Made by a program: the position numbers and the translations under genes. The notes under the pieces are model-generated. The model ran no database searches and was not told the DNA's origin. It saw only the letters and a list, made by a program, of their open reading frames with translations. A stretch of 64,000 bases of DNA from an uncultured delta proteobacterium (lineage in GTDB: Bacteria > Desulfobacterota > Binatia > Binatales > Binataceae). Location: positions 224,001 through 288,000 of the forward strand of contig CAVRVY010000002.1 in the NCBI GenBank assembly GCA_963724765.1, in the 5' to 3' direction. Shown here one piece after another: positions 2,497-63,735 of this stretch. The number at the start of each line of letters is the position of its first letter. Position 1 is the stretch's first letter.

Positions 2497-3909
2497 ATGA
2501 CTCCCAAACAAATTCTCCAGATGATCAAGGACAAGGGCGCCACGTCCGTGGACCTGAAGTTCATGGACCTGCTGGGGCAGTGGCAGCACTTCAGCGTGCC
2601 GATCAGTGAATTCCAGGACGAATCGCCGTTCGATGAGGGACTGGGATTCGACGGGTCGTCGATTCGCGGATGGCAGTCGATCGACAACAGCGACATGCTA
2701 GTCATCCCCGACCCCAAAAGCGCGGTGATGGAGCCCTTCACCAAAGAGCCCACGCTCACCATGATCTGTGACATCTCCGACCCGATTACCCGCGCCGACT
2801 ACTCGCGCGACCCGCGCAACGTCGCGCGCAAGGCCGAGGCCTACCTGAAGTCGACCGGTATCGGGGACACCGCCTATTTCGGTCCCGAGCCCGAGTTCTT
2901 CATCTTCAACGGCATCCGCTACGACAGCAACCAGCAATCGAGCTACTACTACATCGAGTCCGACGAAGGTATCTGGAACAGCGGGCGCGAGGGCACCAAC
3001 CTCGGCTACAAGCCGCGCTACAAAGAAGGCTACTTTCCGGTTCCGCCCAACGACAGCCTGCAGGACATCCGCGCCGAGATGGTGCGCGAGATGGAGCGCG
3101 TCGGCATCCGGGTCGAAAAGCAGCATCACGAAGTCGCCACCGCCGGCCAGGCCGAAATCGACATGCGCTTTCAGTCGCTGGTGAAAATGGCCGACTGGCT
3201 CACCTGGTACAAGTACATCTGCAAGAATGTCGCGATCCGTCACGGTATGACGGTAACTTTCATGCCCAAGCCGATCTTCGGCGACAATGGCTCTGGCATG
3301 CATACCCATCAGAGCATCTGGAAGGGCGAGACCCCGCTGTTCGCGGGCTCCGGTTATGCCGGAATTTCGGAGCTGGCGCTGCACTACATCGCCGGCATCC
3401 TGCATCATGCGCCGGCGCTGGCGGCCTTCACCAATCCGGGTACCAATTCGTATCGCCGCCTGGTGCCCGGTTTCGAGGCACCAATCAATCTGGCTTACTC
3501 CAGCCGCAACCGCTCGGCCGCCGTGCGCATCCCGATGTATTCGCCGTCGCCCAAGGCCAAGCGGATCGAGGTGCGTTTCCCCGACCCGACCTGTAATCCG
3601 TACCTCGCGTTCTCGGCGATGCTGATGGCGGGGCTCGACGGCATCCAGCGCCGGCTCGATCCGGGCCAGCCGCTGGACAAGGACATCTACGCGCTGACTC
3701 CGGCCGAACTGGCCGAGGTGCCCAACATGCCGCCGTCGTTGGAGGCCGCGCTTGACAATCTCAAGCGTAGCCATGAATTCCTGCTCAAGGGTGACGTCTT
3801 CACCGAAGACCTGATCGAGACCTGGATCGACTACAAGATGTCGAAAGAGGTCAGCCAGACGCGTCTGCGGCCTCATCCGTACGAGTTTGCGCTGTACTAC
3901 GACGCCTGA
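2497..3909 (+). CDS. glnA: Glutamine synthetase type I
   Basis: [50 protein letters not shown] and C-terminal [12 protein letters not shown]; 470 aa. Confidence 0.98.
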
Positions 3910-26546: not shown

Positions 26547-26552
26547 CGCGCG

Positions 26553-26602
26553 GAAGTGTGCCCGAATCCCCGAATCTGCATAAGGGTGAAATATTTTCAC
26601 CC
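26553..26602 (-). promoter_or_regulatory. Putative activator-dependent late promoter (PI-like)
   Basis: Minus strand: dyad GGGTGAAAATATTTCACCC, then TTATGC-N16-CACACT-N8-ATG; same layout upstream of the endolysin. Confidence 0.68.
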
Positions 26603-26867
26603 CCAGACGTGGGCGGACCTGCTGACGTTTGGATTCCCGCGCTGCAAGAATGACGAGAGCGGAGAGGCGACGTGAGGGCAGATGAAAATGGAGACGCGGC
26701 CGGTGCCTTCTCAAAACTTTTTAAGCCCTTTCCCGCATCCGATGCGGGCGAGGGCTCAGAAAGGCGTCCGACCTCGTTTGCTCGTTGAGTCGCGTGATCT
26801 CTATGGTGAAAAAAGGGGGACTATCCGGCACTTGACGGATAACGTCCCATGCTGTATATTTCTATCC

Positions 26868-27755
26868 ATGATGACGCTCAAAGAATTGCTGACGACTTTC
26901 CCGAACGAAGATGCGTGCCGCGAGTTCCTGATGGAGCGCCGCTGGCCTAACGGTGTGCGCTGTCCTCGCTGTGGCAAGACCGAAACGGTTTACAAGTTGG
27001 CGAAGCCTTGGAAGTGGGAGTGCTCCAATAAGGATTGCCGCAGGGGCAACGCTTACCGCTTCTCTATCATCAGTGGAACGGTTTTCGAGAATACGAAATA
27101 CCCGCTTCGCACGTGGTTTGAAGTTGTCTGGCAAATGCTCAACAGCAAAAAGGGCGTGAGCGCGCTTCAGATTCAGCGCCAGATCGGTTGCTCGTCGTAC
27201 CAGACGGCTTGGTACATGTGCCATCGCTTGCGCGCCGCAATGCACGATCCCGATTTCAAGCAACTGATGGGCATTGTTGAGGTGGACGAAACCTACATCG
27301 GCGGCAAAAACGCCAACCGTCCGCTGAGCAAGCGTTTCAATCTGAAGGGGCGTGGCGCGGTCGGTAAGGTTGCGCTCATCGGCGCGATCTCTCGCAAGGG
27401 CAACATCACTTGCCAAATCATCGAAGATACTTCGACGGCTACCATGTCGCGCTTTGTGCGTCAGATGGTTTCGGAGAAGGTCGATCTGGTCGCGACCGAT
27501 GAGGGCGCGGGCTACAAAAAGCTGTATCAGGCTTTCCCGCACAAGACGGTCGATCACAAGGCGTTTGAGTACGTGCGTGGCGAGGTCCACACGAACAATA
27601 TCGAAAGCTTCTGGTCGCTCCTGAAGCGCGGAGTCATTGGCACCTACCACAACGTAAGCAAGAAATATCTGCCGCTCTATCTCGCGGAGTTTCAGTTCCG
27701 TCATAACAATCGCAAGAACCCCGACATTTTCGGCGAGGCGATAGCGGGGGCCTGA
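26868..27755 (+). CDS. IS1595-family DDE transposase
   Basis: RWPNGVRCPRC zinc ribbon, VEVDETYIGG, ATDE and HTNNIESFWS; TTGACG-N17-TATATT 7 nt before ATG (leaderless-type). Confidence 0.95.
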   Translation: MMTLKELLTTFPNEDACREFLMERRWPNGVRCPRCGKTETVYKLAKPWKWECSNKDCRRGNAYRFSIISGTVFENTKYPLRTWFEVVWQMLNSKKGVSALQIQRQIGCSSYQTAWYMCHRLRAAMHDPDFKQLMGIVEVDETYIGGKNANRPLSKRFNLKGRGAVGKVALIGAISRKGNITCQIIEDTSTATMSRFVRQMVSEKVDLVATDEGAGYKKLYQAFPHKTVDHKAFEYVRGEVHTNNIESFWSLLKRGVIGTYHNVSKKYLPLYLAEFQFRHNNRKNPDIFGEAIAGA

Positions 27756-27842
27756 AGCTGAAGCGTACTGACTGGCGGTCGCTTCAGTGGACTGGAAGCG
27801 ACGCCAGCGAGTCGAGTCAATTGAAATTGCCATTCCCATCGC

Positions 27843-27998
27843 CTAAGCCTTGGATTCGGTTTGAGCCTCAGCTTGTGCTTGTTTTCGACGCTTCGCCGCG
27901 CGCCGCTTCTGCGCTCGATAGTGCGGGTGCGTCTTCTCGTGATACTCTTTGCAAGTCCAGCAATAGAAGTGAGTGATCTTTTGTGCGTACTTAGCCAT
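27843..27998 (-). CDS. Small basic CxxC protein (IS cargo)
   Basis: MAKYAQKITHFYCWTCKEYHEKTHPHYRAQKRR...; TAATG-coupled to the upstream gene; homolog at 57363-57521. Confidence 0.7.
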   Translation of the reverse strand: MAKYAQKITHFYCWTCKEYHEKTHPHYRAQKRRAAKRRKQAQAEAQTESKA

Positions 27999-28762
27999 TA
28001 GCTCCAGGGGGATGGTGGCCCGGACCAAGAGTCATCACCAATGATGATCATCATTTGATGCTCGGCCTCTGGCGTGGTAATGACGCCCGGGGTCCATCGA
28101 GCATCCAATCCTATTTTGGTGAGGGCCATTGCTATTTGCCTTCCGCTCCAATTGGACGGTCGCGTAAAGACATCTACGCTGTATCGCAGGGAACCGGGAT
28201 TGACGGTTTGTCCGTTTACGGTACACGGCTCAATTGTCTGCATTTGTTTGCTGGCCATTTCCACAAGCAAAGCGCGGAGTCGGCTGTGCTTTTGCGGACC
28301 GGCGATAGTTAAGAAACATGGCCGCGGGAGTGTGAGGAAAGCGCCCTGTACGTCTAAAAGACCGTCGAATGAAATGTGCGATTTCATTTCTGCGGTCTCT
28401 GCCACCCACGACGGAGAGGGAACAACATCGTGGTGTCGGTGGGTCGATTGTGAAACCGGCGTGCTCGTGGGCACAGCGGTAGAAACGCTGGACGCAACCA
28501 CCGGTAGCTTAACGGGAACCGATGTTGCAGGCGTATTATTGCCGTTCCACAGCACAAACGCCATCGAAGCCATCGTGACGACACCCAACGCTATGGCCGC
28601 ACCACGCATCTCCCGTTGAAGGGGCGAACTGCGGTACCACGCGACGGCCCAAGCAAGCGTCGTCAAAACTGTTGCTCCAAGGGACCATTCCCATAAAAAA
28701 TCGAAGGCTTTCCATAGCCCCCACCAAAAACCGATTGTCTGAACGTCGTGCCACATAAGCAC
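27998..28762 (-). CDS. Hypothetical membrane protein (IS cargo)
   Basis: N-terminal TM helices, S/T/P-rich linker and soluble C-terminal domain. Confidence 0.6.
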   Translation of the reverse strand: MLMWHDVQTIGFWWGLWKAFDFLWEWSLGATVLTTLAWAVAWYRSSPLQREMRGAAIALGVVTMASMAFVLWNGNNTPATSVPVKLPVVASSVSTAVPTSTPVSQSTHRHHDVVPSPSWVAETAEMKSHISFDGLLDVQGAFLTLPRPCFLTIAGPQKHSRLRALLVEMASKQMQTIEPCTVNGQTVNPGSLRYSVDVFTRPSNWSGRQIAMALTKIGLDARWTPGVITTPEAEHQMMIIIGDDSWSGPPSPWS

Positions 28763-28809
28763 GAGAAATACCGCAACAACCGCTATCCGTCAACACGCGG
28801 ATACTCCCC

Positions 28810-28845
28810 AAAAAAAGGCGGAGCGCGCGAGGTGCGCGCTCCGCC
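28810..28845 (-). terminator. Intrinsic terminator of gltA
   Basis: Stem GGCGGAGCGCGC/GCGCGCTCCGCC with a T7 tract on the minus strand. Confidence 0.85.
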
Positions 28846-37658: not shown

Positions 37659-37808
37659 GAGAGGAGCGGCGCCACGCTCCTGATTTGCGGGAGCGAGGTT
37701 GTTTCTTCGCTCATCCTGAGAGTTTGTGAATTTGGCGATTATCCGATTGTTGACAGAAAGTACGATTACGTCCAAAATCGGGATCGACGTGACAGACCGC
37801 AAGTATTC

Positions 37809-38585
37809 CTAATTCTGTATGTAGTATTTCTGATACTCGTCGGTCAGATTGTGGGCGGTACAGGAACCAGCGCGGTAAGTGCGATTAGCTACAAAACCTT
37901 GCCAGCCGCAAAAGCTTACCCAATGAGACTGCTTGAACACGTCATAATACACAGCGATGCCGTGGACCATAAGCCACGCTTTGCCAGAGTCGAGAGAATC
38001 CTTTTGGACTTTTGTCAGTGGGGCGACGCTAGTTACCTCCATCGGATATGCGACGGCATTGGGCGTTACCTCACCCGCAAAAACTCTGGACACATTAGGC
38101 ATTCCCAACTCAGGATCGTCGAGTTTGAGCTTAAACGCTGGAGTGTCGTTTTCTTTGACTACATCAATAGTGGCTCTACAGGTCACAAAAAATGCTGGCG
38201 TCTTTCCGGTATTGGCAATCTTTACTTGAGCCGACATCTGCTTTCCGATGATGAGGTCTTTTTGGCTTACGCTGGTAAGAGTTGTGGTCAACCAGGCTCT
38301 CTCATCTTGGCGCATAACATCCAACTGCCCGTTCAAGAGAATGAATTGATAAATGGCGGTGGCGAAGAGGCCAGCGGTAAAGAGGGCCAAAAGCCAATCA
38401 GTAGCGCTGCTTTGTTTGAAAAATTCCCACAATCTCACCCATTGGTTATCTGTGTCGTGAACATCGCTGTTGTGTGCCTCGGATTTGGCGTCGCCTTTTT
38501 TATCCGAGAGCAGAGTCTGGGCGGTATCATTTTGTGTCTCTTGTTTGCTGTTTGCTGCTTCGCGGTCGTCTTTGTCCTTGCTCAT
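37809..38585 (-). CDS. Single-TM protein with beta-rich domain (IS cargo)
   Basis: Charged N-terminus, TM DWLLALFTAGLFATAIYQF, ERAWL and NTGKTPA; similar architecture to 57518-58369. Confidence 0.72.
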   Translation of the reverse strand: MSKDKDDREAANSKQETQNDTAQTLLSDKKGDAKSEAHNSDVHDTDNQWVRLWEFFKQSSATDWLLALFTAGLFATAIYQFILLNGQLDVMRQDERAWLTTTLTSVSQKDLIIGKQMSAQVKIANTGKTPAFFVTCRATIDVVKENDTPAFKLKLDDPELGMPNVSRVFAGEVTPNAVAYPMEVTSVAPLTKVQKDSLDSGKAWLMVHGIAVYYDVFKQSHWVSFCGWQGFVANRTYRAGSCTAHNLTDEYQKYYIQN

Positions 38586-38736
38586 GTTTCTCTGGCTTCA
38601 CCTTTAGCAGTGCCTTGGCAATTTTCGATGCAAGCGAATGCGTCGTATGTTCATTCTTCTTGTCAGCCATGACATTGGCCTCACAGATTGAAAATGAAGT
38701 TGTTCCGGCCTACGCGCCGGTCCGCCGCTGGCCTCA

Positions 38737-39309
38737 TCAAGCCGCTGAGCACGACGCCAACTTTTCGTGCTCAGCGCCCTTACGGGAGATCGCGCCGATA
38801 ACTGCGGTTTTATCGGACGGGCCACGCCCGCGTTGCTCTTTGCGCTTGTTCCAGTGGCGATTGCGATTGAGGCCACCAACATAAGTTTCGTCCACTTCGA
38901 CAATGCCCATCAATTGCGCGAACTCATCGTTGTTCATCGCGGCGCGGATGCGAGTGCACATATACCAGACGGTTTCGTAGCTCGCCTTGCCGTGAAAGAC
39001 CATACGCTTGATCTGAAGCGCGCTCATTCCCTTTTTGGAATGGAGCATCATGAACGCGACTGTGAACCAAGTCTTGAGCGGGTACTTTGTATTCTCGAAA
39101 ACGGTTCCCGTAATCAGCGAGAACCGGTAGCCCTTCTTTGCGCATTGATGGCACTGCCAGTGCCAAGGCCGATGCGTCAGCTTGTAAACCTTGTCGCTGC
39201 CGCAACGCGGGCAAGCGACTTTGCTTTCCGGCCAGCGGTGCTCAAAAAGGAACTGTTTGCAGGCTTCTTCGGTCGGGAAAAGGACGTTGAGTTCGCTCAG
39301 CTTGATCAT
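38737..39309 (-). pseudogene. Truncated IS1595 transposase
   Basis: Zinc ribbon and VEVDETYVGG present, but similarity stops after IGAISRKG; the second D and the E region are missing. Confidence 0.88.
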
Positions 39310-39402
39310 CCATGAGAAATAACAATGCCAAGGGTCACTGTCGACAATCGGATAATCGCCAATTTGAGCCATGCGGGTCCGCTTCTTCGATAGAGCTCTT
39401 TT

Positions 39403-47813: not shown

Positions 47814-49229
47814 CTACGCGCGGCGCGCCGCCGCCGCCGGCTCCAGCAGCGGCTCGTCGGCTGCCGGCTCCGGCAGCCCGAGCCGCCGCAGCACTTCGCG
47901 CTGGCCGACCCGCAGGCCGCGGTCGGCCAGCTCGGACACCATATCGGCGAACAGCTTGACGTCGTTGTCGGCGCTGAGGCCCAGCGCGATCTGCGGATAG
48001 CGGCGCTGCGGTCCCAGGTTGAGATCGACGATCGGCCGCACCAGATCGCGCGTGAGCGTCGCCCCCAGGCGGCGCGCGTCGGACTCCATGATGTCGCGGC
48101 GCACCGCGTCGTGCACCTGGGCCGCCGCCCGCGAGCCGCCGCCCTCGCGCGGCGTCTCGGTGGTCAGCGTCTGCCCCAGCACGGCCTTGCTCACCTGCTT
48201 GTCGAGGTACTCGCAGAAGCGCTCGTAGACTTCGGCGCCGCCGCCCTGGCGGGTCTCGACGAATTCGATCAGCATCGACTCCGGAATTATCGCGGCCGCA
48301 TCCGTGCCGATATTCGCGACCGCGCTCAGCAGCGCCTGCTTGTCGGCTTCGGTTGCGCCGGGGCTGTATTTGCCCAGACGCAGCGGCTGGCCGAAGACCT
48401 CGGCGAACGTCACCCAGTCCTTGAGCACGTAATTCTTGAACAGGTAGGCCCATCCGGCCGCCCGCGCAATTCCGCCGCGCACCGGCAGTCCGGCCTTGGC
48501 CTTGGCCGTGTGCACGATAAACTTGAACGGCGCGAGCGGCGCCGTCAGCGGCTGGATTCCAATTCGCGCCTCCCCGCCGGCCCCGGCGTACCATCGCGAT
48601 CGCCCGTAATGCGGCGCGTGCGCCGCCGGCGCATCGGGCGACAGTTTCGCGGGCGAGACCGCCGCGGCGTCCGCCGGCACCAGCGGTCCTTCGTCGCGCA
48701 GCGTGCGCACCAGCAGTTCCTCGCCCGAGATCCAGTCGAACATGAACCAGCGCGGGTCGCGCCACAGCAGGCGCTTGGGGATCCATTCGCGGCCGCTCGT
48801 GTCCCAGATTATTTCGGTTGCGGAGAAGCCCTTGCCGACCGCGTCGAGGATATCGTAGAGCGCGCTTTCGAGGTCGAACGCGCCGCCGCCGACGAAGTCG
48901 CGCACCAGGTCGGCCGCGCGCCGATCTTCGGGCGCAGCGGAGGCCGGCGTGACGATCAGCTCGGCCCCGGCGACGGCCTGTTTGCGGGTGCTGATCACGG
49001 CCAGGTAATGCAGGTCCTTCTCTTCCATCTCCTCGGCCAGTTCGAGGTAGAGATAAGGATCGCCGGCTTCGGCCTCGCGCTGGATCGCGATCAGCTTTTC
49101 GGGCGTGAGCCCGACCGACGGATGCATCATCGAGTAGATATTGCGCACGCCGGCCATGGTGGGCGCGGCCTGCTCGCCGCGCAGTTGTGCGGTATCGACC
49201 TCGCGCCCGTACGCGTCATACAACTTCAT
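47814..49229 (-). CDS. Mu gp29/DUF935 portal protein
   Basis: ELAEEMEEKDLHY, ILDAVGKGFS, FKNYVLKDW..FAEVFGQPLRLGKY and SKAVLGQTLT. Confidence 0.94.
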   Translation of the reverse strand: MKLYDAYGREVDTAQLRGEQAAPTMAGVRNIYSMMHPSVGLTPEKLIAIQREAEAGDPYLYLELAEEMEEKDLHYLAVISTRKQAVAGAELIVTPASAAPEDRRAADLVRDFVGGGAFDLESALYDILDAVGKGFSATEIIWDTSGREWIPKRLLWRDPRWFMFDWISGEELLVRTLRDEGPLVPADAAAVSPAKLSPDAPAAHAPHYGRSRWYAGAGGEARIGIQPLTAPLAPFKFIVHTAKAKAGLPVRGGIARAAGWAYLFKNYVLKDWVTFAEVFGQPLRLGKYSPGATEADKQALLSAVANIGTDAAAIIPESMLIEFVETRQGGGAEVYERFCEYLDKQVSKAVLGQTLTTETPREGGGSRAAAQVHDAVRRDIMESDARRLGATLTRDLVRPIVDLNLGPQRRYPQIALGLSADNDVKLFADMVSELADRGLRVGQREVLRRLGLPEPAADEPLLEPAAAARRA

Positions 49230-51138: not shown

Positions 51139-51837
51139 TCATCCCTCACTCCGCGTCAGCTCATCGCTCGGCGCTGGGGCCGCCTCGATCGCTTCGCCCG
51201 CAGGCGGCGCCATCTCCGCGCGCCCCGGCGCACCGGCGCCGGCCGCCAGGCGATGCGCCGCCGCGGACGCCTGATCGTTGCTCGCCATCGGCATCTCGAC
51301 GATTTCGAGCAGCGCGGCGCGGATCCGCTTCTCGGCCGTGGCCGACAGTCCCCCCTGCGCCCCGCGGCGCGCCGCCGCGACCACTTTGCGCTCGGCCGTC
51401 ATCACCCGCCGACCGATCCCGCTGCGCATTTCCTCGGCCGCCCGCCGCATATGCACCGCGGAGCGGCAGATCGAAGCGACGTTGCGCGCGAGCGCATTGA
51501 TGTCGATCTTTTTGGGATCGACCTCCTTGAGTTCGACCAGCACGCGGAAGAGATCGCCCTGCACCAGGCGCATCAGGCCCTCGTTGACCGTGTCGTCGGC
51601 GCCGCCCGAGGCGTCGACCACGGCGCGCGCCTGCTCGGTTGCGAGCTTGAGCGCGTTCAGCTTGCGCTCCAGCGCATTGCCGTAACGCTGGAGCGCCGAA
51701 TGCGTGATCTCGCATCCATGCTCGCCGAGCCATCGCGCCAGCCCGCGATAGTCAGAGAAGGAGCCCGCGACCAGACGGCGGTCAAACTCGGCCCGCAGCT
51801 CAGGCGCCAGGCTCTTGATCTTTCCATTGCGCGGCAT
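51139..51837 (-). CDS. Mu gp27/DUF3486 terminase small subunit-like
   Basis: MPR..KI..L..E.R..L....FSDY..L..WL...G.EITHSALQRYG; directly upstream of terminase. Confidence 0.88.
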   Translation of the reverse strand: MPRNGKIKSLAPELRAEFDRRLVAGSFSDYRGLARWLGEHGCEITHSALQRYGNALERKLNALKLATEQARAVVDASGGADDTVNEGLMRLVQGDLFRVLVELKEVDPKKIDINALARNVASICRSAVHMRRAAEEMRSGIGRRVMTAERKVVAAARRGAQGGLSATAEKRIRAALLEIVEMPMASNDQASAAAHRLAAGAGAPGRAEMAPPAGEAIEAAPAPSDELTRSEG

Positions 51838-54721: not shown

Positions 54722-54872
54722 CTTTTCACCTTTTTTTTCACCGAGACTCGCGACGCCCCTCCAATGTCGGCGCTTGTTCCGCCGCCGGACGTTCCGTTTG
54801 CTGACTCGCGCAACTTTTTTCACCAACGAAAAGCCGCCGCCGCTGCCGCTGCTTCTGTGATGCGGCCGCGCA

Positions 54873-55406
54873 CTACTCATACGCTCGATTCAACCATCCA
54901 CTGAGGAAGTCTCGATCGCCGTCGACGCGCCGCCCGCGCTCGAGCGCCGCCAGCGCGCGGTAGTATCCGGCTGCCTCGGAGCGCAACGCCGCGAGCAGCG
55001 CGAGTTGGTTGGCAGCGGCCGCCGCCGTAATCGTCGCGCGGCCCAACGCTCCGTCCTCCGTGACCCGGCGACCGCACGCGCGCAGCGCGCGCTGGACGCA
55101 TCGGACCGCATGATCGGGACCGATATTCACCGCCAGGTCGAAAACCTTCGCCGCGATCGGCCCCGGCAATTCGCTGTAGCGGTAGCGCTGCCACCAGTCG
55201 CGGAAGTAAATCGCGATTGCTGCGGTCCGCGTCAGCGCCGCGATATCGAGGTTGGGATACTCGCGCTTGGTGATGCCGAACTTGGTTTCGCCGCCGGGGT
55301 CGGCCGGATTATCGACGTAGCCGCCCTCGTCGCCGAGCAGCCGGGCGATCGCGCGCTCGAAGGCCGGCGGATAGTTTTGTGTTTGCGTGCTGTCTTGCGG
55401 GTCCAT
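54873..55406 (-). CDS. GH108-family endolysin
   Basis: EGGYVDNPADPGGETKFGIT, FDLAVN.G, DG.LG..T and FLSGWLNR. Confidence 0.93.
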   Translation of the reverse strand: MDPQDSTQTQNYPPAFERAIARLLGDEGGYVDNPADPGGETKFGITKREYPNLDIAALTRTAAIAIYFRDWWQRYRYSELPGPIAAKVFDLAVNIGPDHAVRCVQRALRACGRRVTEDGALGRATITAAAAANQLALLAALRSEAAGYYRALAALERGRRVDGDRDFLSGWLNRAYE

Positions 55407-55412
55407 CGCAGG

Positions 55413-55458
55413 TGGGATTCTCGCAGCCCCGCCGGCTTCGCATAAGGGTGAAATATTT
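55413..55458 (-). promoter_or_regulatory. Putative late promoter (Plys-like) with its dyad interrupted by IS element 3
   Basis: Minus: AAATATTTCACCC-TTATGC-N17-GAGAAT-N10-ATG; the other half of the dyad is at 58533-58545. Confidence 0.65.
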
Positions 55459-55510
55459 GGCGAGTATGCTGGACTTGACTCCAACCCCGCCGTGCGCTAA
55501 GTTAATTTTC

Positions 55511-56416
55511 ATGAGCAACACCCCCGAACCGAAAATCACGCGTCAGATGACGCTTGCGGAGTTTGACCGGCTGTTCCCGAACGAGGACGCCTGCAAGACC
55601 TACCTGGTCGCCAGCAGGTGGCCGAAGGCTGTCAGTTGCCCGCGCTGCGGCAACGAAAAGGTCTGGGCGCTCAAAACCCGCCCGTTCAATTGGGTCTGCA
55701 AGAAATGCGGCGATACGCCCTATCGGTTCTCCGTGCTGGTCGGAACCATCTTTGAAAACACGAATTACAAACTGCTCGTGTGGTTCAAGGTTCTGTACCT
55801 GATGCTCACCAGCAAGAAGGGCATCAGCGCGCTTCAGATTCACCGCATGATCGGATCTGGCTCGTACCGCACGGCATGGTTTATGTGCCATCGGTTGCGC
55901 GCCGGTCTGGCCGATCCTGATTTCCGCAAGCTGATGGGAATCGTCGAAGTAGACGAAACCTACATCGGTGGTTTGAACCGCAATCGCCACTGGAATAAGA
56001 AACAGCCGGGGCGCGGCCCGTCCGGTAAGACTACAGTCATCGGCGCGATCTCCCGCAAAGGCAATGTGGTTTGCAAAATCATCGAAGATACTTCGATGGA
56101 GACTATGAGCCGCTTTGTCCGCAGCGCCGTGTCCGACAAGGTTAGCTTGGTCGCAACCGATGAAGGCGCGGGATACCAAAAGCTTCATCAGGCATTCAAG
56201 CACGACACCGTGGATCACAAAGCACACGAATATGTGCGCGGCGAAGTGCATACCAACAATATCGAATCGTTCTGGTCGCTGCTCAAGCGTGGCGTAATCG
56301 GCACCTACCACAACGTCAGTAAGAAGTATCTGCCGCTGTACTTGAATGAGTTTCAGTTCCGCCACAACAATCGCAAGAATCCCGATATCTTCGGGGCGGC
56401 GGTAAGAGGATGCTGA
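55511..56416 (+). CDS. IS1595-family DDE transposase
   Basis: CPRC/CKKC, VEVDETYIGG, ATDE and HTNNIESFWS; TTGACT-N17-TAAGTT-N7-ATG. Confidence 0.95.
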   Translation: MSNTPEPKITRQMTLAEFDRLFPNEDACKTYLVASRWPKAVSCPRCGNEKVWALKTRPFNWVCKKCGDTPYRFSVLVGTIFENTNYKLLVWFKVLYLMLTSKKGISALQIHRMIGSGSYRTAWFMCHRLRAGLADPDFRKLMGIVEVDETYIGGLNRNRHWNKKQPGRGPSGKTTVIGAISRKGNVVCKIIEDTSMETMSRFVRSAVSDKVSLVATDEGAGYQKLHQAFKHDTVDHKAHEYVRGEVHTNNIESFWSLLKRGVIGTYHNVSKKYLPLYLNEFQFRHNNRKNPDIFGAAVRGC

Positions 56417-56622
56417 AGCGTCCGAACTGGCGGATGCTTCTGCATCACGCGTCCAGTAGGCCGGTTCAATTGAAGTTGAAATTCTAAGAGGCTGCATGAG
56501 ACGATCTAATGCCCAAACAAATCAAACAGACCCCGCCACAACCCGTCCCTGTCAAATCACCACCGCCGCTGACAATTCCGCCGAACAAGACTTCGATACA
56601 CACTCAAGAAAGTCCGCCGCCA

Positions 56623-57246
56623 CTAAGACATCCACCCCACAAAGAAGTGAAGAAAGGCGGTTAGCTGCGGGCCAGCACCCAAACTCCAAATCTCAACTAA
56701 AGGCGGGATGAGCACGACGACCAACCCCGCCAGCAGAAGATAATGGCTCCAACGAACATACAACGCTTTTCCAAGATTGATCTGGTCTGCCGACTTGACC
56801 GCGCGGTACATGGCAATGAGATAAAATCGCCTCAATTGATCGGGGAAATCCAAGAAATCCTCAGCAAACCAAGTGTCCTTTTCTTGGATGCCCTCAAAGA
56901 TTCGAACGCGGAAGGCGAGAACCGCAAGCCCTGCGGCAACCATCAGCATGATAAGTCCAAGGAATATAAATATTCCGCCTCCAGTAACCTCGGTTATCAA
57001 TCCTTTCCAGTACGAAAAGGTCGAAATTAGAAGAGCGACAATGCCACCCACGAAACTGGCGGACAGTTGGGCTTTCGAATCAAGCACATCCGTTATCTTG
57101 TTTGTCTGTTCGAGCAGCAAAGAACCGAAATCGTACAGGACTGGTGTGCTTTCTTTGTTCGAGTGGCGGGTAAGTCTACAGAGCACCTCTCTCTCTCCTG
57201 GCACCGGCGTTCCGTTTGAATGTTGTTCCGTCAAAAGGCTTTCCAT
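56623..57246 (-). CDS. 3-TM protein resembling the Pycsar effector (PycTM) fold
   Basis: LDSKA+TM+TM...N.GKA..V..S+TM; homolog at 60053-60667. Confidence 0.6.
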   Translation of the reverse strand: MESLLTEQHSNGTPVPGEREVLCRLTRHSNKESTPVLYDFGSLLLEQTNKITDVLDSKAQLSASFVGGIVALLISTFSYWKGLITEVTGGGIFIFLGLIMLMVAAGLAVLAFRVRIFEGIQEKDTWFAEDFLDFPDQLRRFYLIAMYRAVKSADQINLGKALYVRWSHYLLLAGLVVVLIPPLVEIWSLGAGPQLTAFLHFFVGWMS

Positions 57247-57362
57247 CGGTTTTATGACCTCACTTCAATCACGACCCGATCTTAATCGACATGCAATATA
57301 AGTTTATCAAACAGGGTAGGCGTGCCTGAAGATGCTTCCTGTCTGCTCTTGTGGAGGCCGTT

Positions 57363-57521
57363 ATGTCTAAGGAAGGCGAGGCCAAAAAGAAGATCATTCA
57401 CTTCTACTGCCACACCTGTAAGGCATACGAACTGAAAACCAGTCCGCACTATCGCGCTCAGAAGGTGCGCTTCGCAAAGCGGCGCAAGGCGGAAAAGGCG
57501 CAAGCAGAAATGCCGAAATGA
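57363..57521 (+). CDS. Small basic CxxC protein, 52 aa (IS cargo; not in the ORF track)
   Basis: GGAGG RBS; MSKEGEAKKKIIHFYCHTCKAYELKTSPHYRAQKVRFAKRRKAEKAQAEMPK; ATGA overlap with the next gene. Confidence 0.72.
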   Translation: MSKEGEAKKKIIHFYCHTCKAYELKTSPHYRAQKVRFAKRRKAEKAQAEMPK

Positions 57522-58369
57522 AGCATTCATCGATTCTGATTGCAGCAACAGTTCTGCTCCTAGCCGCCGCAAACAGTAGAGTGCCAAGCGGTCCACAACA
57601 AACACCCCAAAGCGAAGCAACAACCAAAGATAGCAACGGCAGCAGCCGTCCAAGGCGAGTTGCCGCTCAGAATGAGCCAACAATAAACAGCGCCGCTCCC
57701 CATAGCGACCACGACACCTATAACTATTACGGCGACCTCAAGTATGTTTCCTATAATTCCGCACTCAAGGGCTTCTGGGCTAAAATTGGGCAAATAGCAG
57801 ACGCAATTTCGGCGGTATTGATAGCCTTTTTTACGGGGGCTCTGCTGTGGCTCACCAGAATGCAGTTTGTTGCCGAACACCGGCCAAGGATGCGGCTCCG
57901 TAGAGTGAAATTGTTGACCGATATCTCTAATCCCGACGATTGGATCGACACGACCCTTGAATTTGAGTTGCTGATTACAAATCAAGGCGGGACTAAGGCA
58001 ATGTTCACTAGCAGCAATATAGCCATCGGCATAGGTCGGAGGACTGAACCAGACCCGACGACATTGTTTACCATTGAGCCCGCAAATATCCTCAAAGGAT
58101 ATAAATTGAATCCAGGGGTCGAGTACACCCACAAATTCACTGCCAATAAATGTCAGTCTTTGTTGGATATCTTGGTCAGAATGAGAGTTCGGAATGATAT
58201 GTTCCTTTATGTTGTAGGAGACTTCTGGTATCGAGATCGCCTGAGACAACGGTATTACAAGACGGCTTTTTGTAGACGCCTGACCGAAGGTGAGAAAGTT
58301 TTGAACATACAAAAGACGCTCCCGCGATTTATTGTCGTGAACAACCCCGAATATGAGTACGCCGACTAA
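57518..58369 (+). CDS. Exported/TM protein with beta-rich domain (IS cargo)
   Basis: Signal-like N-terminus, TM AISAVLIAFFTGALLW, EHRPRM, ITNQGGTKA and YVVGDFWYRD. Confidence 0.72.
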   Translation: MKHSSILIAATVLLLAAANSRVPSGPQQTPQSEATTKDSNGSSRPRRVAAQNEPTINSAAPHSDHDTYNYYGDLKYVSYNSALKGFWAKIGQIADAISAVLIAFFTGALLWLTRMQFVAEHRPRMRLRRVKLLTDISNPDDWIDTTLEFELLITNQGGTKAMFTSSNIAIGIGRRTEPDPTTLFTIEPANILKGYKLNPGVEYTHKFTANKCQSLLDILVRMRVRNDMFLYVVGDFWYRDRLRQRYYKTAFCRRLTEGEKVLNIQKTLPRFIVVNNPEYEYAD

Positions 58370-58623
58370 AATCAGGGCCAGCGCCAGCGGCCACGCTACG
58401 TAGCCCGCTTGATGCGGGCATCTTAACGGCGGATCGTCGCCCCCGTCCGACGAACCCCCTGAGTCAGAATCCGGCCTGTCCCTGCCTACGGTAGGCGAAC
58501 CGGACATTGGAGTCAAGTTCAGCATACTCGCCAAATATTTCACCCATAGCCTTGCGCAAGGCGGCGCTTCGCACGCTCTGCATCGTGGCAGCCAAAGCGA
58601 AACAGCTACCCCCGCAAATCCGA

Positions 58624-58791
58624 CCGCCGGGGTCGGCCGGATTATAGACGTAGCCGCCCTCGTCGCTGAGCAGCCGGGCGATCGCGCGCTCGAAGGCCGA
58701 CGGATAGTTTTGTGTTTGCGTGCTGTCTTGCGGGTCCATCGCAGGCGGGATTCTCGCAGTCCCGCCGGCTACGCATAAGGGTAAAATATTT
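58624..58791 (-). repeat. Diverged duplicate of endolysin 5' end plus promoter (copy of 55291-55458)
   Basis: Encodes MDPQDSTQTQNYPSAFERAIARLLSDEGGYVYNPADPGG and then breaks; 58533-58626 likewise duplicates 61646-61739. Confidence 0.93.
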
Positions 58792-59031
58792 AGGGATGAT
58801 TCACTTGACGAAGGGATATGGGTTTGCTAGTATCCCCTAAATGCAGCGGTTCACTTCTTCTTTTTGGCCTCGTCTTCAAGCTCTCTGCGGCGCTTGTCCG
58901 CTTGCTCGGCTAGGGTCTTTCGTATCGAGCGCACAAGGTCTTGCGTTGGCACTTTCTCGATATTGGGCGTGCGCGGTTCGTCTGTCTGTTTACGGCTCGG
59001 CTTTGACATATCCCCGCTCCGGAGAATCGTT

Positions 59032-59916
59032 ATGAATCTGTCCGCCATCAACCATCTGTTTTCGACTAAAGAACAGTGTCGCGAACTGCTCAAGCGGCTG
59101 CGTTGGCCCAAAGACGTTAGCTGCCCGCGTTGTAATCACGACGCCGTTTGTTGGCTCAACACTCAGGAAAAATTTGAATGCTCTAAGTGTTCCTATCAGT
59201 TCAGCGTCACTGCTGGGACCATTTTTCACGATTCCCATTTGCCGCTCGAAAAATGGTTCTTCGCTACCTTCCTCATGTGCGAGGCCAAGAAGGGCATCTC
59301 GGCTCGCCAGATGCATCGGATGCTTGGCGTCGGTTCTTACAAAACCGCCTGGTATCTCTGCCATCGCATACGCGCCGCGATGAAAGAGGAATTGCCCGCG
59401 CGGCTCAAGGGCGTTATCGAGGCTGACGAAACCTATGTCGGCGGACGCGCGCGCGGCGCTGGCAAAGGCCACTATCACGATACCAAGGCAATCATTCTTG
59501 GGGCAGTCCAGCGCGGCGGCCCGATCCGTCTCAAGGTCGCGAACGACAATCGCAAAGCAACCTTGCACGAATTCATCCGGAGTAACGTTGATCCAGAAAG
59601 TAAGCTCTACACTGACGAATGGCCCGGCTATAACGATCTTCCTAATCGCGAGACCGTCAATCACCGCGCGAAGGAATACGTGCGCGCCGATGTCCATACC
59701 AACTCGGTTGAGTCTGTATGGAGCTTGTTCAAACGCTCGATTGTCGGTCCGTATCATCATCTGAGCGAGAAACATATGCAGTCGTACTTGGATGAAATCA
59801 GCTTCCGGTTTAACCGTCGCAAGAGCGATGAATTGTTCATCGAGACTTTGCGCGCATTGGTACAAACGCCAGCATTAACGTTTAGCCGTCTGACGCGCGA
59901 GCAGGTGGCTGTTTAA
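59032..59916 (+). CDS. IS1595-family DDE transposase (divergent from elements 1-3)
   Basis: CPRC/CSKC, IEADETYVGG, YTDE, HTNSVESVWS and YLDE..FRFNRR. Confidence 0.95.
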   Translation: MNLSAINHLFSTKEQCRELLKRLRWPKDVSCPRCNHDAVCWLNTQEKFECSKCSYQFSVTAGTIFHDSHLPLEKWFFATFLMCEAKKGISARQMHRMLGVGSYKTAWYLCHRIRAAMKEELPARLKGVIEADETYVGGRARGAGKGHYHDTKAIILGAVQRGGPIRLKVANDNRKATLHEFIRSNVDPESKLYTDEWPGYNDLPNRETVNHRAKEYVRADVHTNSVESVWSLFKRSIVGPYHHLSEKHMQSYLDEISFRFNRRKSDELFIETLRALVQTPALTFSRLTREQVAV

Positions 59917-60052
59917 GTTATCTGGTGCTGATTTTTCCTTCATAGGGGGATTCTTGATGGCTAATGACGATCAATCAAAATCTACCGGTACCGGTAGCAC
60001 TGGCTCTTCTGGCTCCAACCAAAGTGGTGGTGGCGAATCATCACAAAAACCA

Positions 60053-60667
60053 TCATTGCATCCTTCCCGCGATGCCAAGCCTCGGCCAAACATTGCCATT
60101 AAGAGCAACCAAGGTGGGAACGTGAAAAAATAGAGTTAGTACGTGCACGACCAATCCACCAGCTAGAAATGCTGCTGCGAAGAGCAGCAAACGTTGACTG
60201 GATAGCAGGAGCCTGCCCTTCTGCTCGGCTAAAGCATTTTGCGATTTGCGCACTCCGTGCCAACAGCGAATATGGAAGCGCTTCAATTCGTCTCCATTGA
60301 CTAGCGCGCTTTTCTCAAACCAATCTGCATCACTCGGACATTCCCATGCGTAACGCGCGCGCAACGCCCGATACGCCTGGATCGCTGCAAATAAGGCGCA
60401 GAGAGCGCCCAGCACGATAAATCCTAGGCTTAACGTAACACTATGGGGAGGATCAAGAAGAAAAGCTAAGACCGCAGTGGACCAGCCAAGAACCATCGCC
60501 GCTTTGGAATCAATTTGGCTACTGCGCTGCTGAACTTCTGCCATTAACATTTGTCCGAACGATGCCAATTCGTCAGTCACTCCCTCCTCTTCATATGAAT
60601 AGACAAGTTCTTGTACTTCCTCACTAGAGAGGTCGTTCTGCTGAACAGTAAATCTAGCCATCATCAA
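60053..60667 (-). CDS. 3-TM protein resembling the Pycsar effector (PycTM) fold
   Basis: QIDSKA+TM+TM..WF....L.RF...KG..L..S+TM. Confidence 0.6.
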   Translation of the reverse strand: MMMARFTVQQNDLSSEEVQELVYSYEEEGVTDELASFGQMLMAEVQQRSSQIDSKAAMVLGWSTAVLAFLLDPPHSVTLSLGFIVLGALCALFAAIQAYRALRARYAWECPSDADWFEKSALVNGDELKRFHIRCWHGVRKSQNALAEQKGRLLLSSQRLLLFAAAFLAGGLVVHVLTLFFHVPTLVALNGNVWPRLGIAGRMQ

Positions 60668-60673
60668 GCTCCC

Positions 60674-61567
60674 TTAAAATGCCTCAACTTCGCCGCTTAA
60701 CGCTTTCAAAACTAAAGGTAGCGAAGGTGTCGTTTCTTTTAGCTCGCAGGCCATGGCTGTTATCGCACTTTTACAAACGTCGAAGAGAACTAGGGCCTTG
60801 TCTTCGTCCAAATTGTCTTCAGGGTGAATAATAGGATTCCTGTGCATCTCTCTAATCTGGTCAATGAGGGCAATAGTCTTGACGTCTGGCCTCAGAGTCT
60901 TGTTTGGATCGTTGGCACATTTGGTCAAAATCTTTGTATAAGCTCCCCAATTGCGCATCTTCGGTTTTGGTTTAGTGCCGACAAAGCGCTCATAGTAGAT
61001 ACGCAAGACAGCATCTGTCGCGCGAAGAATGTGAAAGCCAGTGGCGGTGAACAGATCGAATGCGAGGCATTTGCCAGCTTGTCGAAAATCATTGACAGCT
61101 TGACCTGAAATTTCAGCGCGCAGACTAGCTGACAAAGCATTTTCGGCACGTTCAATCAGATCGGCTGTGGAGTATATACCTTTTTTTGAAACCGTATATG
61201 TATCCGCCGTACTTAACTCAGCGGACAATACGGTCTGAAATTCACTAATGGCATCGCGCACATAATACGATGCCATGACGTCTAGTGTCGGCGGGTCGGT
61301 TTCGTTCGTACCTTTGTCAATGGCTTGGCGTATAATTTTGGTGGCTTCGGCGTTTTGTTCGTTGACCAACTCCTTGAGCTTAAGCGTAGTTGCACGAACG
61401 ACCTGAAGGGTCAGCGCCTCTACCTTGAGAAGAGCGCTCAACCAACGAGACGCATTGAAATAATCATAAGTCAAATCCTGAAGCGGGGTGCCGCTCTCAG
61501 ACTTTAGCCCCAGCGCACGAATAATCGCCCCACCCTCGTAGAAGAAAAATGAATTTAGACGCTCCAA
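60674..61567 (-). CDS. HEPN-like (DUF4145-type) protein; start inferred at TTG 61567
   Basis: AGKCLAFD..TA.GFHILRATDAVLR and RNPIIH (RxxxxH). Confidence 0.65.
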   Translation of the reverse strand: MERLNSFFFYEGGAIIRALGLKSESGTPLQDLTYDYFNASRWLSALLKVEALTLQVVRATTLKLKELVNEQNAEATKIIRQAIDKGTNETDPPTLDVMASYYVRDAISEFQTVLSAELSTADTYTVSKKGIYSTADLIERAENALSASLRAEISGQAVNDFRQAGKCLAFDLFTATGFHILRATDAVLRIYYERFVGTKPKPKMRNWGAYTKILTKCANDPNKTLRPDVKTIALIDQIREMHRNPIIHPEDNLDEDKALVLFDVCKSAITAMACELKETTPSLPLVLKALSGEVEAF

Positions 61568-61784
61568 TTTACTTTCCCCCAAAGGCACTATGGCCCATTG
61601 GGCAGCATACGGTTCGGTTGTCCCTTCGTCAAGTGAATCATCTCGAGATTTTTCACCCATAGCCTTGCACAAGGCGGCGCTTCGCACGCTCTGCGTCGTG
61701 GCAGCCGAAGCGAAACAGCTACCCGCGCAAATCCGACCGGCGATTGCGATCAGCGATTGAAGGACCGCGCGCTGCTGCGATTCG

Positions 61785-62126
61785 TCAAACCGAGCGCGGG
61801 TCCGCGCAAATCTCGCGGCGTGCGTCGGCCAGCACCTGGAATACGCGCCGGCGCGTGCAGCTCAGCGTGCGCGCGATCTCCTCGACGCTGCGGCCCGCGG
61901 CGCGCAGCGCCAGAATCTGCGTGCGGCGCGGCGGCGGCTTGGGCAACTCCACTCGCTCGCCGCCAAACATCTCGGCCAGCTTCATTGCCGCTCCCGTGCC
62001 GACCGCGCGCGCCAGGGCGTCGTTGGCGCTCGGGCTATGCGGGACATACAGGCGGGTACCTCCGAAGCTGGCGATCAGCTTGGCGGCCGCTTCTTCGCCT
62101 ATGATCTCGACGATGAACCCCAGCAT
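61785..62126 (-). CDS. Mor/C-family late transcription activator
   Basis: IGEEAAAKL...FGGTRLYVP, a second GGERVELP and C-terminal HTH (RSVEEIARTL..TRRRV.QVL); GGAGG RBS. Confidence 0.85.
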   Translation of the reverse strand: MLGFIVEIIGEEAAAKLIASFGGTRLYVPHSPSANDALARAVGTGAAMKLAEMFGGERVELPKPPPRRTQILALRAAGRSVEEIARTLSCTRRRVFQVLADARREICADPRSV

Positions 62127-62416
62127 GGATATCTACCTCCCCCGGGTTTCGCTTCGCCTGCGGCTCCGCGCCATCCTCTTCCGCCACCTTTGGCAGTGCG
62201 AAATGGTCCTCTTTGATGGGCTGTGCTTCGACCGTCCGCTCGCGCCGCCCAGCGACGGCCGCGAAAGGTTCGGATTGAAGCGGAAATGTTCCAGATTGTG
62301 ACAGCGGCGTTACAGTCGGAGCGCGCGGATGAGATGCCGCCGCATTGCGACGAGCGTCGACAAATTGGCGCGCGACGCCATCGAATTGTCGCTCCGATCG
62401 GCATACGCATAAGGTC

Positions 62417-62776
62417 TCAGGCGGCTTGCGCGGGTTTGTGTGCCGCCGCGGTTAGCTCGTGCGCGATACGGTCGAGCAGCCCGGCGAAGTCGGCGTCGGC
62501 CAGCCGGCGGCGCGCGACCACGTTGCAGGCGTGGATGACGCTGGTGTGATCGCGCGCGAAAGCCATGCCGATACGAGGAAATGAGGCCGCCTGGCGCCGC
62601 CGTCCCATCCATCCGCCGCCTGCCAGCTCGCGGCTGAGATACATCGCCACCTGGCGCGCACCGGCGACGCGATGGCGGCGCTTACGCGAGAGCATCTCGC
62701 TGATATTGAGGCAAAACGCACGCGCCACGGCGTGCTGGACATCGGCGATCGATATGCAACCGGGACGGTCTTCCAT
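62417..62776 (-). CDS. Stand-alone DnaA C-terminal (domain IV) DNA-binding protein
   Basis: I.DVQ.AVA..F......MLSRKR...VA.ARQVAMYLSREL...SFPRIG..F.RDHTSVIHA; GGAGGA RBS. Confidence 0.85.
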   Translation of the reverse strand: MEDRPGCISIADVQHAVARAFCLNISEMLSRKRRHRVAGARQVAMYLSRELAGGGWMGRRRQAASFPRIGMAFARDHTSVIHACNVVARRRLADADFAGLLDRIAHELTAAAHKPAQAA

Positions 62777-62819
62777 TGCAACGGTCCTCCTGTCATTGGC
62801 GCGCCTGGCGCATGGCGCG

Positions 62820-62964
62820 AACACTTGTTGGATAATGCGAGGCACGCTAATTGCGTATTCCGGGTGATCGAGTCGTGAATTGGGAATCCATGGCCGGCGC
62901 TGCGCGCCGTGCGCGCGCGTAGTATCGGACAGACCGCGCTGGCGGTGAGGATTTAACACTTGTT
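62820..62964. promoter_or_regulatory. Two AACACTTGTT dyads, candidate repressor operators
   Basis: Identical 10-mers at 62820-62829 and 62955-62964 in the divergent promoter region. Confidence 0.45.
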
Positions 62965-63078
62965 TGAAGATCGAGACCGAAAAGCTTTGTGCGGGCGACG
63001 AAAATAGCCCATAAAAATGGTTCAACGAGCGAATCCAGCAAACATAGCCACGGGCATTTATCCCACAGTGGGAGGAAG

Positions 63079-63735
63079 ATGTCAACTACAGTAGGAGAAG
63101 AGGAGTTCCGCCGGCGTCTGCGCCTGATCATGCAACAGTTTGGATCGGTCGCGGATCTCGCGCGGGCTGTCGGAGTATCGGACAACGCCATCTACAAATG
63201 GGTTTCCGGCCGCGGGCAGCCAAGTATGATCAGTCTCGTTAATCTGGCGCGTGCCGCGCGGGTCTCGATCGAGTGGCTGGCGACCGGACAAGACGCCCCC
63301 AAGGGCGAAGTGCGGGGAGCGGAATCCGGCGAGTACGTATATCTGCCGCGCAACTCGGTGCGCAGCTCAGTTGGCCGGGGTACTGTGCAGAGCCACCAGA
63401 TTGTCGACTACCTGGCGCTCAAGGCTGAATGGCTGCGGCGCCGTATCAATATCGATCCGAAGAGCCTGATGCTGATCGAGGCGGTGAGCGACTCGATGAC
63501 GCCCACGATCGAAGAGGGCGATCTGGCGCTGGTTGACTTGCGGGATCCGCGTTTTCGTCATGACGGAGTTTACGTACTGCGGACGGGCGGAGATCTGTCG
63601 ATCAAGCGTATCCAGCGCCGCCCCGACGGCAAGCTGATCATCCGCAACGACAACGCCGCCTATGAGCCGACGGTCGTGACCGCCGACAGCGTCAATGTCG
63701 TGGGTCATGTAATATGGATCGCTGGACGGCTGTGA
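63079..63735 (+). CDS. CI-like repressor (HTH + S24 peptidase)
   Basis: SVADLARAVGVS..AIYKW..G...P, VSIEWLATG, DSMTPTI.EGD and IKRIQ; GGAGG RBS. Confidence 0.92.
   Translation: MSTTVGEEEFRRRLRLIMQQFGSVADLARAVGVSDNAIYKWVSGRGQPSMISLVNLARAARVSIEWLATGQDAPKGEVRGAESGEYVYLPRNSVRSSVGRGTVQSHQIVDYLALKAEWLRRRINIDPKSLMLIEAVSDSMTPTIEEGDLALVDLRDPRFRHDGVYVLRTGGDLSIKRIQRRPDGKLIIRNDNAAYEPTVVTADSVNVVGHVIWIAGRL

Follow-up and report, generated by a model that had tools for sequence, protein, structure and literature searches.

Results

Layout of the promoter array

We analysed a 64,000-nt stretch of the genome of an uncultured Binataceae bacterium (GenBank assembly GCA_963724765.1, hereafter G000; contig CAVRVY010000002.1, positions 224,001 to 288,000 of the forward strand), which is called the window in the following. 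Near the right end of the window, the promoter of the lysis/packaging operon (Plys) of a Mu-like late gene cluster is present twice, and each copy is split in the centre of the same palindrome by a different cargo transposon of the IS1595 family, E3 or E4. Reading and alignment of the region gave the order L1 - E3 - R1 followed by L2 - E4 - R2, in which L and R are the left and right parts of a promoter unit of ~260 bp. The palindrome is referred to as the dyad, and PI is the promoter of the head gene gpI. The features of the array are as follows.

54873 to 55406, minus strand: GH108 endolysin (PF05838 and PF09374), first gene of the lysis/packaging late operon
55291 to 55458, minus strand: L1, proximal left copy, covering 116 nt of the endolysin reading frame, its core promoter and the half-dyad GGGTG + AAATATTT (repeats, alignment)
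55459 to 58532, plus strand: E3, IS1595-family cargo transposon, 3074 bp, G+C 0.52, perfect 8-bp duplication AAATATTT (repeats, end alignment)
55511 to 56416, plus strand: E3 transposase, 301 aa (PF12762, E 3e-41; PF12760; NF033547)
58533 to 58623, no strand: R1, made up of the second AAATATTT, the half-dyad CACCC on the right and a further 78 nt from upstream, ending at the CCG junction (repeats, alignment)
58624 to 58791, minus strand: L2, distal, decaying left copy, carrying the endolysin substitutions P14S, G25S and D32Y and a G>A change of the half-dyad (alignment)
58792 to 61645, plus strand: E4, second IS1595-family cargo transposon, 2854 bp, G+C 0.50, flanks AAATATTT and AGATTTTT (repeats, end alignment)
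59032 to 59916, plus strand: E4 transposase, 294 aa (PF12762, E 1e-36; PF12760; NF033547)
61646 to 61742, no strand: R2, distal right copy, running on unbroken toward the Mor/C gene (repeats, alignment)

A repeat search detected the unit as direct repeats of 173 nt (55291-55463 and 58624-58796, 95% identity) and 102 nt (58528-58629 and 61641-61742, 91%), together with inverted-repeat pairs flanking E3 (3.0 kb; 55443-55484 and 58507-58548) and E4 (2.8 kb; 58776-58816 and 61621-61661). When the copies were aligned, the left parts (168 nt, comprising the endolysin 5' end, promoter and left half-dyad) showed 7 differences, and the right parts (91 nt, right half-dyad and upstream sequence) showed 6 over the first 94 nt; the unit copies diverge by 4-6%. 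An earlier reading of this DNA made without database searches (the sequence-only reading) had described a promoter unit doubled with scattered single-nucleotide differences, joined at a CCG microhomology near 58624 and occupied by both transposons in the palindrome centre. Each of these points was confirmed, the doubling by the repeat search and alignment, the join by the end of R1 (...GACCG) and the start of L2 (CCGCCGGGG), which overlap by 2-3 nt at CCG, and the position of the transposons by the AAATATTT core of the dyad, which flanks E3 on both sides and E4 as AAATATTT / AGATTTTT. Chance matches of the 18-nt palindrome, GGGTGAAATATTTCACCC, expected in the window numbered 0.

The transposases of both elements are of the DDE type and have a zinc ribbon at the N-terminus; terminal inverted repeats (TIRs) and an 8-bp target duplication are also present, which places E3 and E4 in the IS1595 family. 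The TIRs of E3 are 26 nt long with 25/26 positions matching and those of E4 are 25 nt long with 23/25 matching, while the target duplications match at 8/8 and 6/8 positions, respectively; the ends of E4 are consistent with those of relatives such as the element at locus L171. Both transposase frames are open and scored 207 and 226 bits against NF033547 (cut-off 75), and the two proteins are just 39-42% identical, so that with their separate TIRs the elements are clearly different, as had been noticed earlier. Their G+C content is 0.50-0.52 versus 0.62 genome-wide, and no second copy of E3 or E4 was found in the genome. By eye, the inverted ends of the elements (55475-55505, 58805-58835 and 61600-61632) contain TTGAC followed 17 nt on by a TAnnnT-like hexamer, both facing inward, which are candidate promoters for the transposases and, at the right end of E4, for cargo genes.

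Physical linkage of the array

Logan contigs of four runs (X1 to X4, from four studies) were placed on positions 54800-62400. Part of the segment 58300-59100 was contained in 10 of the 12 public runs listed. Record 6 of X1 (644 nt, 0 differences, 0 gaps) corresponds to 58467-59110 and contains 66 nt of E3, R1, the junction, L2 and 319 nt of E4, while record 30 of X4 (58411-58674) runs from the end of E3 through the R1/L2 junction. The remaining joints were bridged as well: L1/E3 by record 1 of X1 and record 26 of X4, L2/E4 by record 13 of X2 and record 19 of X3, and E4/R2 into the Mor gene by record 32 of X4. Pieces with zero differences were found in runs from all four studies. These spanning pieces are contigs and not single reads, and X1, the run in which the array is best represented, may be the source sample of the assembly to which the window belongs.

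The dyad and the Mu-like late gene cluster

The dyad occurs in the window beside genes resembling the late genes of phage Mu, of which the following are used here.

25392 to 26546, minus strand: homologue of Mu gpI (protease/scaffold)
26584 to 26602, no strand: second dyad, unoccupied, with an extra T in the core (19 bp), ~40 bp upstream of gpI (dyad search)
47814 to 49229, minus strand: Mu portal, downstream of the endolysin gene on the same strand
51139 to 51837, minus strand: Mu gp27, downstream of the endolysin gene on the same strand
61785 to 62126, minus strand: Mor/C-family transcription activator, 113 aa (PF08765, E 2e-10, 40.9 bits, cut-off 24.9)

The Mu gpT major head protein lies further left along with gpI. 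Plys in the window has the geometry dyad - 23 nt - GAGAAT - 10 nt - ATG, and the form common to Plys and PI is dyad - 23 nt - (G/C)A(G/C)A(A/C)T - 8 to 10 nt - ATG. With this shared geometry the centre of the dyad would fall near -44.5 and the promoter would lack a -35 element; both the -10 element and the position are predicted from the sequence. By analogy with Mu, the GGGTGAAATATTTCACCC dyad, which stands ahead of the lysis/terminase/portal operon and of the gpI/major head operon, is a putative operator of a Mor/C-type late activator, and the Mor/C gene next to the array was the sole match of its family in a genome-wide search. At both late promoters (55400-55450 and 26547-26583) the ATG follows the -10-like hexamer after just 8-10 nt, a spacing with which the late transcripts would be nearly leaderless.

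A search of 61 related genomes recovered the endolysin-promoter unit in 14 of the 16 genomes of the same genus (81-88% identity). The intact site ...CATAAGGGTGAAATATTTCACCC... stands before the endolysin gene in 11/12 same-genus loci (L002 to L013), even where the flanks differ, and the remaining one (L002, genome G013) is occupied; weaker forms of the dyad were seen in other genera (L015, L017 from the unpublished genome G033, and L020). All of the nine further same-genus dyads that were fetched lie ~40 bp ahead of a gpI homologue. Among 165 genomes of the family, 26 exact intact dyads were found in 16 genomes; 23 of them fall within the genus, all at Plys-type or PI-type positions, and the frequency is 1-3 per genome. 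The PI dyad of G000 with its extra T is the only such variant beside these 26 intact dyads. Since E3 and E4 occupy the others, all three dyads of G000 are altered.

The cluster is fixed in the chromosome and looks like a domesticated, phage-derived particle cluster, short of a complete Mu-like prophage. The Mor gene is followed on its right by a 114-aa open reading frame (ORF), a repressor with a helix-turn-helix and S24 peptidase domain, and then host-type genes (acyltransferase, methylamine dehydrogenase), and Mu A/B-type transposition genes were absent from the 10 ORFs in the 18 kb searched on this side. G014 has the same gene order, acyltransferase - repressor - ORF - Mor (L203; counterpart in the window at 62452-63735), and because G014 is another species, the recurring host neighbours suggest a domesticated cluster kept by vertical descent. 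The portal and gpI genes are split by ~19 kb of genes that lack a phage signature (28900-47800, with two DUF3443 genes, DUF2844 and others), among which no Mu F/G-type genes were seen, and by two further IS1595 elements. Element 1 (26817-28810) has the duplication AAAAAAGG and lies within an A-run by a terminator-like hairpin, 215 bp from the PI dyad; in element 2 (37734-39360) the transposase is truncated and the duplication imperfect (6/8).

Occupied dyads in related genomes

The 165 family genomes were scanned for a dyad half joined to an IS1595-type end, a pattern that does not catch E4. The pattern was present in 5/165 genomes and a reversed control pattern in 0. Together with E4 this gives seven IS1595 insertions, made by at least five distinct elements, that interrupt the dyad at its AAATATTT core; they are spread over five genomes and affect both promoters.

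G000, Plys: E3
G000, distal unit copy: E4, an additional event
G013, Plys: 2124-bp element, transposase 81% identical to that of E3, different cargo
G013, PI: 2.15-kb element
G001, PI: 4.1-kb element
G126 (another genus), PI-like site: IS1595 insertion
G014, half-site ~100 bp from the intact Plys dyad: one junction, frameshifted transposase (right end of the element not found)

All seven lie at one fixed position, between GTG AAATATTT and the mirror half. Three of the seven are at the gpI promoter, and no insertions inside late genes were among those seen. In 6/6 events that could be oriented, the promoter-proximal half-site is abutted by the transposase end of the element (two-sided binomial P 0.03). 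Across the family, about one in five dyads is interrupted in this way. The targeting hotspot put forward by the sequence-only reading thus found strong support, in that the same 8-mer of the same dyad is occupied in G000 (twice), G001, G013 (twice), G014 (half-site) and G126.

Divergence of the unit copies

To read the direction of change, ancestral and derived states were set from 10 relatives, with L010 and L013 left out by the anchor filter. Five of the seven L1/L2 differences are derived in L2, 1 is derived in L1 and 1 is ambiguous. The five derived states of L2 comprise three amino-acid changes (P14S, G25S and D32Y), one non-coding change and one change in the otherwise invariant half-dyad; some of them fall at residues that are otherwise conserved in the 10 relatives, and silent changes in the 38 shared codons number 0. 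Such decay of the distal copy speaks for an old duplication in place, with two separate insertions afterwards, rather than for a recent fusion of working alleles.

An independent tandem duplication was found in G003 (L023, contig C17). There a 746-bp unit is repeated at a period of 2787 bp with 94.6% identity between the copies, and the junction is a different one. Both dyads are intact there, and an IS1595 element with the duplication AAAACTTG is present in one copy while the corresponding site in the other is empty. As a separate observation, three contigs of G013 (L025, L026 and L027) contain repeats longer than 6 kb that are 98-99% identical, each with a 49-nt 5' fragment of the endolysin gene fused to unrelated sequence.

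Target sites of related elements

A scan of related-genome contigs and G000 yielded 45 elements of the E3 clade, of which 39 had usable duplications and 33 had clean 8-bp duplications. The A/T count of the clean duplications ranges from 3 to 8, and only one of the 33, that of E3 itself, is all-A/T. In G000, all-A/T 8-mers occur at 3903 positions and AAATATTT in 44 copies, the latter being occupied at dyads only. With ~117 IS1595 candidates from a first look at 17 genomes of the genus, which are not copy numbers, and a share of ~3/3903 per candidate, ~0.1 dyad insertions would be expected versus six seen.

A sequence component in target choice is indicated by the E3-clade sites away from dyads, judged by their resemblance to it. 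Three of 37 such sites (L030, L031 and L045) match the dyad at 12-13/18 positions (P 0.001 versus an AT-matched background), and three of 37 have palindromic arms of at least 5/6 (permutation P 0.006). The elements at L030 and L031, with the G013 element, are among the closest transposase relatives of E3. No Mu-type protein match was found at the L030, L031 and L045 loci, where the neighbours are ordinary genes or another IS. The mean dyad similarity of the non-dyad sites is not raised (5.27 versus 5.38, P 0.65), which speaks against a simple rule and leaves only a subset alike.

Further sites recorded in the survey are given here for completeness. Element X6 (contig C3 of G000) and L063, both of the E3 clade and in different genomes, have a common duplication, CTTGACGA, and the same right flank, which may represent another recurrent target or insertion into an IS end. 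On contig C4 of G000 (176621-185893) three different IS1595 elements are nested, and the right flank (...ATATTTC TTATGCGAAGCCG...) shares a 13-mer and half a core with the lysis promoter; this may be the remnant of another dyad insertion. The 16 IS1595 transposase loci of G000 are nearly all distinct, with one identical pair and two further near-identical loci. Those with ends found are 1.6-3.8 kb each and the complete ones carry their own cargo, which is uncommon for one IS family in a single genome.

Cargo genes

The genes carried by the two transposons in addition to the transposases are listed below.

56623 to 57246, minus strand: E3 cargo, 207-aa membrane protein (weak PADLOC PycTM match, E 8e-4)
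57351 to 57521, plus strand: small basic Cys/His protein, 56 aa, beside the E3 transposase gene (tblastn, 26 matches in stored loci)
57518 to 58369, plus strand: E3 cargo, 283-aa protein with a hydrophobic N-terminus (open reading frame)
60053 to 60667, minus strand: E4 cargo, 204-aa membrane protein (weak PycTM match, E 2e-3)
60674 to 61567, minus strand: E4 cargo, 297-aa HEPN-like (DUF4145-like) protein (family motif, model)

The 207-aa and 204-aa membrane proteins are weakly related (blastp, 26% identity over 123 aa, E 5e-7). The 56-aa Cys/His gene is kept just downstream of the transposase gene across many E3-clade elements and its product may be an accessory factor; no reliable family for it was found in Pfam or NCBIfam. 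As to cargo function overall, NCBIfam returned no match, PADLOC only the weak PycTM matches and the Atlas only unnamed clusters; for the 283-aa protein there was no match in Pfam, NCBIfam or PADLOC either.

The 297-aa protein of E4 has 126 homologues, all unnamed. The motif R243-N244-x3-H248 is invariant in the 43 sequences of the family compared, of which 10 matched DUF4145, 2 HEPN and 3 Csm6_HEPN models, while the E4 protein itself matched none. Its predicted model is all-helical (pLDDT 90), and a fold search with this model placed Csm6/HEPN proteins on top (best Csm6 E 0.039), none of them reaching E <= 0.001. That the cargo of E4 comprises a HEPN-like nuclease and a membrane partner is a lead, not a finding.

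Discussion

This study documents the repeats, the ends and target duplications of both elements, their linkage on contigs, the conserved dyad with its placement and recurrent occupancy, and an asymmetric decay. On these grounds we conclude that the putative operator of a Mor/C-type late activator is probably a preferred site of IS1595 cargo transposons, and that in G000 the promoter unit was duplicated and then entered by E4 and E3. In the proposed course of events, the ~260-bp unit would have been duplicated in tandem by an illegitimate join at the CCG microhomology. E4 would then have entered the distal, redundant copy, which has since decayed, and E3 would have entered the proximal, working copy more recently, leaving a perfect duplication. 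This order is inferred from the decay of L2 and from the duplications of E3 (8/8) and E4 (6/8). By duplicating the 8-bp AAATATTT core, the transposons cut the dyad in half, each insertion parting the promoter-proximal half-site from the distal one, and the lysis/packaging operon is predicted to be uncoupled from its activator with a presumed loss of expression. The preference may be read from the sequence or shape of the DNA or from the activator-bound state.

Two other accounts of the structure were weighed. The tandem array could be an assembly artefact in which two strain alleles were concatenated; in its favour, the genome is seemingly metagenome-assembled, the related records are all metagenome-assembled genomes and the contamination is 5.16%. 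The R1/L2 junction would occur in neither of two separate alleles, yet record 6 of X1 and record 30 of X4 contain it, with E3 and E4 to either side, and zero-difference pieces come from runs of four studies; an artefact is therefore not supported and is hardly credible. The other account, close to the recombination between two alleles that the sequence-only reading had suggested, is that an E3-bearing and an E4-bearing allele, already diverged, came together through recombination of the illegitimate or Campbell type. It would fit the 4-6% difference between copies next to an E3 that looks young, the 5.4% difference between the tandem copies of G003, which makes diverged copies a recurring feature, and the right parts without clear asymmetry. 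A working allele should differ mainly by silent changes, and L2 has three amino-acid changes, none silent, and a changed half-dyad, which is the pattern of a decaying spare copy and not of a second working allele. A joint with single occupancy or an empty allele is also not listed among the Logan contigs, where the thin cover means that this says little. Fusion of two alleles is thus not favoured and we regard it as unlikely, the duplication of one unit followed by two insertions being preferred.

The recurrent use of the dyad could likewise be explained without specific targeting, if AT-rich 8-mers are liked by the elements and rare in a genome of 62% G+C, and if insertions persist because the cluster is dispensable or its silencing is favoured. 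In experiments, the family member ISEc69/Tn7052 gives 8-bp AT-rich duplications (PMC7835479); the phage-derived parts of the window hold just 4 all-A/T 8-mers besides the dyad cores, and the cluster looks degenerate in G000. Against this stand the single all-A/T case among the 33 clean E3-clade duplications, the 41 other AAATATTT sites and ~3900 all-A/T positions of G000 that are empty, the excess of six insertions over an expected ~0.1, and the use of dyad-like sites away from any phage context. A simple preference for AT-rich 8-mers is ruled against by these data. Since contigs also run from one element into the other, both conditions that the sequence-only reading had named as refuting it came out negative. 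Repeated selection to silence lysis/packaging, which had been offered as the alternative to a hotspot, is not enough alone, because the gpI promoter does not control lysis and the insertions there would give no protection from it; selection of this kind would also have to account for the lack of insertions seen in late genes. We therefore consider the absence of specific targeting very unlikely, and a preference for the dyad remains the favoured reading.

Several observations weigh against this reading and temper it. E3 and the Plys element of G013 align at 80% over 1638 nt, straight across the junction, so the two are possibly one old insertion, which would leave six independent events; the genomes compared are kin, so counts across them overstate independence. 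The cluster in G000 looks degenerate, with ~19 kb of unrelated genes between portal and gpI and the extra T in the PI dyad, so that relaxed selection could have helped insertions to persist. The preference is not exclusive, as 37 of the 39 E3-clade sites with usable duplications are outside dyads. For the E4 clade, no relatives closer than 45% identity were found in 60 related genomes, and the 35 of 80 metagenome loci at which both ends were recognised have diverse duplications, with AAATATTT in 1/35, and are too few to define an E4 preference. As for the history of the array, the right parts show no decay asymmetry, with two derived states in R1 and one in R2.

DDE insertion sequences are usually thought to be loose in their choice of target. 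In the family studied here, a low-copy, putative transcription-factor operator is repeatedly split, and at least five distinct elements are involved. Were the preference an intrinsic one, it would offer a simple and testable case of operator-directed transposition and a natural way for hosts or transposons to silence late genes of phage origin, and a programmable DDE transposase with sequence bias might be derived from it. The array also indicates that an insertion hotspot can turn into a hotspot of local duplication. A more far-reaching proposal, which at present is rather doubtful, is that a subclade of IS1595 homes to the Mor/C operator, either by direct reading, via the Cys/His protein or through activator-distorted DNA. 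Its members would then be promoter-knockout elements that disarm phage-derived late operons and deliver defence-like cargo, namely the HEPN-like and membrane proteins, and insertion or its repair would drive the tandem duplications in two genomes.

Comparison with known systems

Siguier, Gagnevin and Chandler are said to have described in 2009 an IS1595 family with passenger genes, the 'transporter IS' (cited in PMC3129680). E3 and E4 resemble this family in the DDE transposase with a zinc ribbon, the TIRs, the 8-bp duplications and the carriage of genes unrelated to transposition. They differ in the strong and recurrent preference for a dyad and, in the E3 clade, in the small Cys/His gene kept by the transposase gene. 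No report of IS1595, or of any IS, homing to a Mor/C operator was found in the open-access literature.

Within the same family, ISEc69/Tn7052 in E. coli gives 8-bp duplications for which A/T is required at the outer positions (PMC7835479). The core AAATATTT fits this rule; the preference in that report is a general one for AT-rich sites without a single dominant site, unlike the dyad described here. Closer in behaviour are the insertion sequences that use repetitive extragenic palindromic (REP) sequences as targets (PMC1525189). There, too, different elements are reported to insert repeatedly at one set position of a short palindrome; in contrast, the target of E3 and E4 is a low-copy putative operator (1-3 per genome), the elements are of the IS1595 family and the specificity is partial.

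For the operator itself the model is phage Mu, in which protein C binds a 16-bp imperfect dyad centred at -43.5 in the late promoters (Plys, PI and PP, as well as Pmom), which lack a -35 element (PMC2582627; preprint 10.1101/2025.05.02.651988). The cluster in the window differs in that its dyad is a perfect 18-bp palindrome of another sequence, in having one Mor/C gene and in the absence of Mu A/B genes from the adjoining 18 kb, and in that it adjoins the same host gene in another species and so looks domesticated. It is like Mu in having a Mor-family gene just upstream of the lysis promoter, a dyad ~44 bp upstream of the predicted -10 element, no -35 element, and late operons of both the lys and the I type.

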